This document shows positions 22,806 to 22,976 of a DNA stretch of 64,000 nt, piece after piece. How positions within the stretch are numbered: the first letter of the stretch is position 1; each line of letters begins with the position of its first letter. Source of the stretch: Escherichia phage BEU44. The position numbers and the translations under genes are program-made. The notes below the pieces were generated by a model that did no database searches, had not been told where the DNA came from, and was given only the letters and a program-made list of their open reading frames with translations. Location: sequence record OM632670.1; one strand, written 5' to 3'.

Positions 22806-22976
22806 TTAGTCGCTACAAATACGGTACATTACATAAACCCAAACAAAAGAGGTTGATGTATATACAGCATAATAAATTTGTTGCATAACGTTATCTGGAG
22901 TAGAAATTACCCATGCAATACCAATAATACTAATTAAGATTGCTGCAATAAGTTTACAAATAAGTTTTTTAATCAT
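22806..22976 (-). CDS. small hydrophobic protein (56 aa), not in ORF track
   Basis: Hand translation MIKKLICKLIAAILISIIGIAWVISTPDNVMQQIYYAVYTSTSFVWVYVMYRICSD; ATG 22974-22976 directly after HNH stop, TAA at 22806-22808. Confidence 0.4.
   Translation of the reverse strand: MIKKLICKLIAAILISIIGIAWVISTPDNVMQQIYYAVYTSTSFVWVYVMYRICSD

Follow-up and report, generated by a model that had tools for sequence, protein, structure and literature searches.

A 56-codon open reading frame (ORF) with a hydrophobic translation lies directly behind the stop codon of a stand-alone HNH endonuclease gene in Escherichia phage BEU44 (OM632670.1). It raises two questions: whether so short a frame is a gene at all and, if it is, what its product would do in the infected cell. 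We analyzed the ORF within a stretch of 64,000 nucleotides of this record (the window), which comes from an N4-type phage (Enquatrovirus), and compared it with its counterparts in related phages, in metagenomic contigs and in protein databases.

Identity and coding status of the ORF

The ORF occupies 22806..22976 on the (-) strand (MIKKLICKLIAAILISIIGIAWVISTPDNVMQQIYYAVYTSTSFVWVYVMYRICSD) and consists, by both the ORF list and the sequence, of 56 codons followed by a TAA stop, the ATG start being at 22976..22974 and the stop at 22808..22806. Over the 1.4 kb that surround it, identity is 100% with Escherichia phages BEU5, BEU13 and BEU14 and 98-99% with AlfredRasser, PMBT57 and N4. In the N4 reference (NC_008720/EF056009) the ORF is annotated as gp23 (EPNV4_gp23, YP_950501), between gp22, an "endonuclease", and gp24, an "ATPase"; in AlfredRasser it is annotated as bas69_0058, and in most related records as a hypothetical protein. 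The window protein is identical to N4 gp23 at 54 of 56 residues (96%), the differences I24V and I34L both being conservative; with N4 gp23 and the other Enquatrovirus orthologues together, its identity is 96-100%. The profile PHROG 23946 matches residues 1-56 over its positions 1-56 (E 3.9e-37); the same profile is matched by the homologues from KP8-like phages (E 9e-32) and from L010, a Logan contig of an uncultured N4-like phage (E 2.5e-22). The UniProt entry A0MZB3 "Gp23" in BFVD superimposes on the gp23 model with a TM-score of 0.96. The profile match coincides with a position upstream of a gp24-type ATPase gene in N4, AlfredRasser, KP8-like phages and L010. By identity and position, the window ORF is N4 gp23, the same gene in the same slot between gp22 (HNH) and gp24 (ATPase), i.e., an already catalogued hypothetical gene that belongs to a family with no assigned function. 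A preliminary description of this DNA had called the ORF unannotated, which has to be corrected, since it is carried in public records as gp23/YP_950501, bas69_0058, PHROG 23946 and A0MZB3. The coordinates, the length of 56 amino acids, the ATG at 22974-22976 right after the HNH stop and the hydrophobic character, which the same description had given, are correct in the sequence.

The TAA of the HNH gene gp22 (22977..22979, (-)) is contiguous and in frame with the gp23 ATG, forming a TAAATG junction. A Shine-Dalgarno-like AAGGA (22986..22990, (-)) is located 9 nt 5' of the ATG, within the 3' end of gp22; it is the same in N4 and AlfredRasser, and a metagenome copy differs by one base downstream of the motif. 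The TAAATG layout suggests that translation of gp23 is coupled to that of gp22. Readthrough of the gp22 TAA would yield an HNH-gp23 fusion, the stop and the start sharing one frame. This shared frame is probably fortuitous, as KP8-like phages do not preserve the arrangement.

The composition of gp23 is unusual, with a GC content of 28.7% and a GC3 of 19%, compared to GC3 values of 33-36% in gp22, gp24 and gp25. Part of the low GC may come from the T-rich codons of hydrophobic residues, and the composition fits an accessory, possibly acquired gene. It should be noted that gp21 is AT-rich as well (GC 32%, GC3 25%), that the HNH gene between gp21 and gp23 has a GC3 of 36%, and that the window as a whole has a GC content of 41%.

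Shuffled copies of the window, at its 41% GC, contain about 55 ORFs of at least 56 amino acids that start with ATG; therefore, length alone is no proof of a gene. Shuffling the 200 nt that separate the HNH stop from the gp24 start produced such an ORF on the gp23 strand in 32 of 20,000 replicates (0.16%). With tblastn, each of the 15 Enquatrovirus records and a further 10 from Klebsiella Kaypoctavirus yielded a homologue (25 records in total), and the frame is intact in all four related copies that were translated in full. The copies from N4, AlfredRasser and the metagenome preserve both the ORF and the upstream AAGGA intact. The homologues from Kaypoctavirus and from L010 are 44-50% identical to gp23, and all of them lie upstream of a gp24-type ATPase gene. 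Among Kaypoctavirus copies dN/dS is 0.06-0.14 at pS of 0.2-0.37 (Nei-Gojobori). Between the three lineages (Enquatrovirus, Kaypoctavirus and L010) synonymous sites are saturated (pS 0.6-0.8) and 44-50% of residues are kept, with dN/dS of approximately 0.2-0.3. Because the frame is kept across lineages with dN/dS well below 1, we conclude from these comparisons that gp23 is a real protein-coding gene under purifying selection. The conservation in relatives that had been named as a check on the ORF is therefore confirmed across three lineages, with dN/dS of 0.06-0.3.

The distribution of the family is narrow. When 1.84 billion cluster representatives, standing for about 15 billion proteins, were searched exhaustively with a HMMER profile, only three real clusters were retrieved: the N4 type, the KP8 type and a 66-amino-acid protein, P0018; two further matches were spurious and repetitive. 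P0018 is encoded on a 19-kb Logan contig, just upstream of a 114-amino-acid gene and homologues of gp24, gp25 and dCTP deaminase. A word-indexed protein search with gp23 returned its own cluster only, scans of viral, metagenome and bacterial-genome contigs revealed no further lineage, and none of 185,579 species genomes of bacteria and archaea has a homologue. An Rfam scan of positions 20000-26000 produced chance-level matches only and therefore offers no RNA-element alternative for the region.

Predicted structure and membrane topology

Hydropathy and AlphaFold2 give two predicted helices in gp23, in line with the one or two transmembrane (TM) helices that the preliminary description had expected. 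Helix 1 (residues 2-23; 22908..22973, (-)) combines a lysine-rich N-terminus (K3, K4, K8) with a strongly hydrophobic TM segment, as both hydropathy and the AlphaFold2 model indicate; the 19-residue Kyte-Doolittle mean for residues ~5-24 is 2.6. Helix 2 (residues 30-55; 22812..22889, (-)) is predicted by AlphaFold2 and is rich in aromatic residues (Y35, Y36, Y39, F44, W46, Y48, Y51). For residues ~33-52 the Kyte-Doolittle value of 0.9 is marginal and the Wimley-White octanol value of about -8 kcal/mol is favourable. The AlphaFold2 model, built on an alignment of 14 sequences, has a mean pLDDT of 93.8 and joins the helices (2-23 and 30-55) by the six-residue turn I-S-T-P-D-N, although such confidence for a two-helix peptide on a shallow alignment carries little information about the membrane.

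Alignments of the three lineages place the most conserved stretch at residues 25-38 (22863..22904, (-)), which read S-x-P-x-N-(V/I)-M-Q-Q-I-Y-(F/Y)-A-(V/I) and comprise the turn and the start of helix 2. The turn and the helix 2 start are essentially invariant, as are W46 and Y48, and the substitutions in helix 1 stay hydrophobic. Within helix 1, the conserved residues K4, L5, I15, G19 and W22 fall on one face (helical-wheel clustering 0.79). Such a concentration of conserved residues (one face of helix 1, the turn and the beginning of helix 2) suggests a specific contact with another protein at or near the periplasmic face.

The orientation of the protein can be judged from its charges. The N- and C-termini together carry 4, 4 and 6 basic residues in the three lineages, and the turn carries 0, 0 and 1; under the positive-inside rule, basic termini and a turn almost free of basic residues favour cytoplasmic termini and a periplasmic turn. 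On prediction, gp23 thus has two spanning helices, a short turn and a positive-inside charge distribution, the features of inner-membrane helical hairpins, and it is most likely a hairpin of this class, with cytoplasmic termini and a short periplasmic SxPxN turn. Alternatively, gp23 may be a single-pass protein with an interfacial second helix, since helix 2 is marginal by Kyte-Doolittle and the relatives have K or E at the position of Y39 of N4. The best PDB match to the predicted hairpin is the antiparallel two-helix membrane hairpin of an F-type ATP synthase c-subunit (4cbj_A; TM-score 0.78), which, at an E of 9.5, is not significant and amounts to a generic resemblance of shape only.

Neighbourhood and the variable gp17-gp24 interval

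On the coding strand, the order of genes is gp18, gp19, gp20, a terminator-like hairpin, gp21, gp22, gp23, gp24, an ORF of 59-70 amino acids, gp25 (VWA/DUF2201) and dCTP deaminase. The product of gp18 belongs to PHROG 1510, "superinfection exclusion", and is similar to P22 gp17. The small two-TM gene gp19 (24451..24693, (-); PHROG 1130) overlaps the start of gp20 (23622..24458, (-); PHROG 200), which encodes an SPFH/HflC-like lipoprotein, an arrangement that recalls bacterial NfeD-SPFH pairs. Directly after the gp20 stop and 5' of gp21, a terminator scan identified an intrinsic-terminator-like hairpin with a T run (23593..23615, (-)). The first gene past it is gp21 (23335..23559, (-)), which encodes a Cys/His-rich protein of 74 amino acids with a weak zf-UBP match below the Pfam cut-off. 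It is followed by gp22 (22977..23333, (-)), the stand-alone HNH_3 endonuclease of 118 amino acids (PF13392, E 9e-20; PHROG 1872; N4 gp22), and by gp23. The gene gp24 (21718..22776, (-)), a core Schitoviridae gene for a MoxR-like AAA+ ATPase of 352 amino acids, begins 29 nt past the gp23 stop and has a GGAG motif of its own (22783..22786, (-)).

The terminator scan found no terminator-like site between gp21 and gp24 outside coding hairpins; therefore, gp21-gp24 are probably one transcription unit that starts at gp21. The scan also flagged a perfect inverted repeat, AGACCTGTCAGGTCT, at 22568..22582 (-), inside the gp24 coding sequence, with a T-rich stretch after it. Late transcripts of N4 have the polarity opposite to that of the gp23 strand, and gp24/gp25 have been described as middle transcripts (PMC4496689; PMC4193335), so that gp23 would most likely be a middle gene. 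The gap between gp24 and gp25 is filled by the ORF of 59-70 amino acids (21552..21764, (-); 21552..21731 in the version starting with ATG), which is annotated as bas69_0056 in AlfredRasser. The N4 RefSeq record leaves a gap of 167 nt there, KP8 has no room for such an ORF, and G7C has an HNH gene at this place.

Across Enquatrovirinae, the interval from gp17, the decoration-protein gene, to gp24 is a mosaic: N4, KP8, Moo19 and G7C each have their own set of small membrane or secreted proteins. In KP8-like phages this variable island consists of a 2-TM gene, a small soluble gene, an HNH gene, a 63-amino-acid single-TM gene, the gp23 homologue, a secreted protein of 119 amino acids and two more genes. 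Moo19 has an HNH gene, a single-TM gene and three others; this HNH gene is orthologous, and yet Moo19 has no gp23 homologue. The island of G7C is limited to a single-TM gene, a small soluble gene and a secreted protein of 108 amino acids, with neither an HNH gene nor a gp23 homologue at that locus. A single-TM protein of 56-63 amino acids that ends in CVM(Q/R)FVPEK (PHROG 7508) is common to the islands of KP8, Moo19 and G7C (loci L002 2256..2447, L003 2883..3053 and L011 2269..2457) and has no counterpart in N4 or in the window. From this distribution it follows that small envelope genes have been shuffled between genera.

A close comparison is with KP8 gp031 (Kaypoctavirus), annotated as a "putative 2 transmembrane helical domains containing protein", which is 44-47% identical to gp23. 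It shares the hairpin layout, the SxPxN(V/I)MQQIY motif and the location between an HNH gene and the ATPase gene. Unlike gp23, it has 61 amino acids and a basic C-terminal tail, is preceded by the 63-amino-acid single-TM gene and is followed by the secreted 119-amino-acid protein. Because KP8-like phages have this intervening gene and Moo19 has the HNH gene without gp23, HNH adjacency is, in the genomes compared, a trait of the N4 genus and not a property of the family, and the emphasis that had been placed on the HNH-adjacent position is not sustained.

The secreted protein points to a partner of gp23 in the relatives. Directly 3' of the gp23 homologue, both KP8-like phages (L005 4184..4543) and L010 (308..652) encode a signal-peptide protein of about 115 amino acids. 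Its gene meets that of the gp23 homologue at a TAAATG junction in KP8-like phages, and in L010 the two overlap. The signal-peptide proteins of the two lineages are distantly related, with 20% identity over their full length (pairwise E 2e-5) and matching N- and C-terminal cysteines. No Pfam or PHROG family includes them, the relatives retrieved from the protein database are all close ones, and the AlphaFold2 model is poor (pLDDT 40). A likeness to MliC-type lysozyme inhibitors was also considered, with nothing found in support. A search of the window for the partner gene and for the other island genes of the relatives found none of them, and N4 itself is without the partner.

Possible functions of gp23

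Database comparisons give little direct guidance to function. Pfam, NCBIfam, PADLOC, a PDB sequence search and Foldseek against PDB and BFVD yielded no informative relative of gp23 beyond N4 gp23 itself; PADLOC likewise gave no match for gp18-gp21, gp24 or gp25. We found no literature on the function of gp23, including for N4 in the CRISPRi-ART study. As to the setting, the neighbours of gp23 are directed to the envelope, the island varies between genera, a periplasmic partner is coupled to the homologue in relatives, and the composition is atypical. For these reasons we favour, with modest confidence, a dispensable inner-membrane accessory factor that acts on the envelope of the infected cell, its likeliest role being superinfection exclusion or the inhibition of a host inner-membrane protein. 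The preliminary description had named small membrane proteins in this position as candidates for host takeover or exclusion; the candidacy fits the variable island of envelope genes, the low GC and the narrow distribution, whereas neither homology nor literature links gp23 to such a role.

The gene, its selection, its distribution and its setting are read from the data, as is the hairpin prediction. The course of events that we infer from them, including timing, membrane insertion, topology and every step of function, would be as follows. The gene would be expressed together with gp21 to gp24 and beyond (rightward, not late), and its translation would be coupled to that of the HNH gene gp22 through the TAAATG junction. 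The product would enter the inner membrane of the host in hairpin form, its two ends remaining cytoplasmic and the six-residue SxPxN turn reaching the periplasm. There it would bind another membrane or periplasmic component, by means of the turn, the beginning of helix 2 and a single face of helix 1, and would thereby alter the envelope of the infected cell, either excluding a superinfecting phage or modulating a host inner-membrane protein.

A more specific form of this proposal is put forward as a possibility that we consider doubtful at present. Here gp23 would be the membrane part of an envelope module specific to Enquatrovirinae that excludes N4-like phages or blocks a host inner-membrane factor via the SxPxN-MQQIY turn, by a mechanism unrelated to that of T4 Imm or Sp; its partner in Kaypoctavirus and one uncultured lineage would be a periplasmic protein that is translated together with it. 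For exclusion, the nearest functional analogues are T4 Imm and Imm-like proteins such as G7C gp27.1, which are encoded in related Enquatrovirinae and, like gp23 as predicted, are small inner-membrane proteins with two hydrophobic helices and pre-late expression; there is no sequence relationship. That gp23 might be a diverged Imm-like protein was considered and rejected, as hhalign against G7C gp27.1 gave a probability of 0.4% and there was no Pfam match. The G7C gene (L011 6498..6758) sits where N4 and the window have the unrelated soluble gp28 (window 19325..19567), and N4-type phages are therefore without a recognisable Imm homologue.

Among the other explanations, a role in lysis timing is unlikely. 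In this case, gp23 would be a holin, an antiholin or a factor in lysis inhibition, with the N4 pinholin gp63 or the regulator gp62 as its target. The shape of gp23 is like that of many holins and antiholins and like that of N4 gp62, a protein of the same phage that has two TM helices and cytoplasmic termini, and loci beyond the lysis cassette take part in N4 lysis inhibition (PMC12642591). However, gp62 differs from gp23: it has 109 residues, is encoded on the opposite strand within the late lysis cassette and shows no similarity to gp23. In turn, gp23 is about 50 kb from that cassette, on the early/middle strand, and has neither a holin-family match in Pfam or PHROGs nor a paralogue in the window. 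Moreover, lysis as well as lysis inhibition is reproduced by gp60-63 on their own, and more than 60 rapid-lysis mutants map to gp61, gp63, gp50, the terminal repeat, gp1 and gp39, with none in gp23 (PMC12642591).

The location upstream of gp24 on the same strand in all three lineages would also be consistent with an accessory subunit that tethers the machinery of gp24 (MoxR-like ATPase) and gp25 (VWA/DUF2201) to the membrane. We regard this as very unlikely: gp24 and gp25 occur in 668 Schitoviridae phage records compared to 25 for gp23 homologues, and three other genes separate the gp23 homologue from gp24 in KP8. Judged by these occurrences, gp23 is not an obligate partner of gp24/gp25.

It is also very unlikely that gp23 is cargo or a partner of the HNH gene, the two being one mobile cassette, or gp23 serving as a C-terminal membrane anchor produced by readthrough. 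The direct TAAATG junction, the shared frame and the proximity of an HNH gene to the gp23 homologue in both N4 and KP8-like phages would agree with it, but the 63-amino-acid gene that intervenes in KP8-like phages overlaps in a different frame, the orthologous HNH gene of Moo19 occurs without gp23, the GC3 values are discordant (19% in gp23 vs 36% in the HNH gene), and the same frame is expected by chance in one case out of three. Obligate co-occurrence or co-mobility with the HNH gene, as in a homing-endonuclease cassette, was not found for gp23. Translation stops efficiently at TAA codons, and the idea of programmed readthrough at the end of gp22 was rejected as unsupported.

Finally, a chance ORF or annotation artefact in an AT-rich spacer, with no functional protein, could be imagined from the shortness of gp23, the ~55 ATG-initiated ORFs of this length in shuffled windows and the fact that hydrophobic translations are the default outcome of T-rich sequence, but this explanation is effectively refuted by the retention of the frame in three lineages at saturated synonymous divergence with dN/dS of 0.06-0.3, and is further opposed by the 0.16% of gap shuffles that reproduce the ORF on its strand, the Shine-Dalgarno motif, the tight fit between same-strand genes and the lack of an Rfam match.

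The envelope-directed accessory factor thus is the reading that we prefer for gp23, a gene that the N4 reference has carried ever since its deposition and that is one of very many small phage membrane proteins without a known function. The present analysis adds proof of selection, a family of three lineages, a hairpin model, the conserved SxPxN(V/I)MQQIY turn and a partner gene in relatives. With these properties, gp23 is a candidate that lends itself to study in a classic model phage, being short, under selection, confined to two or three genera, and marked by a sharp motif at the predicted turn. Should it turn out to exclude other phages or to inhibit a membrane protein of the host, competition between phages in Schitoviridae would gain one more mechanism.
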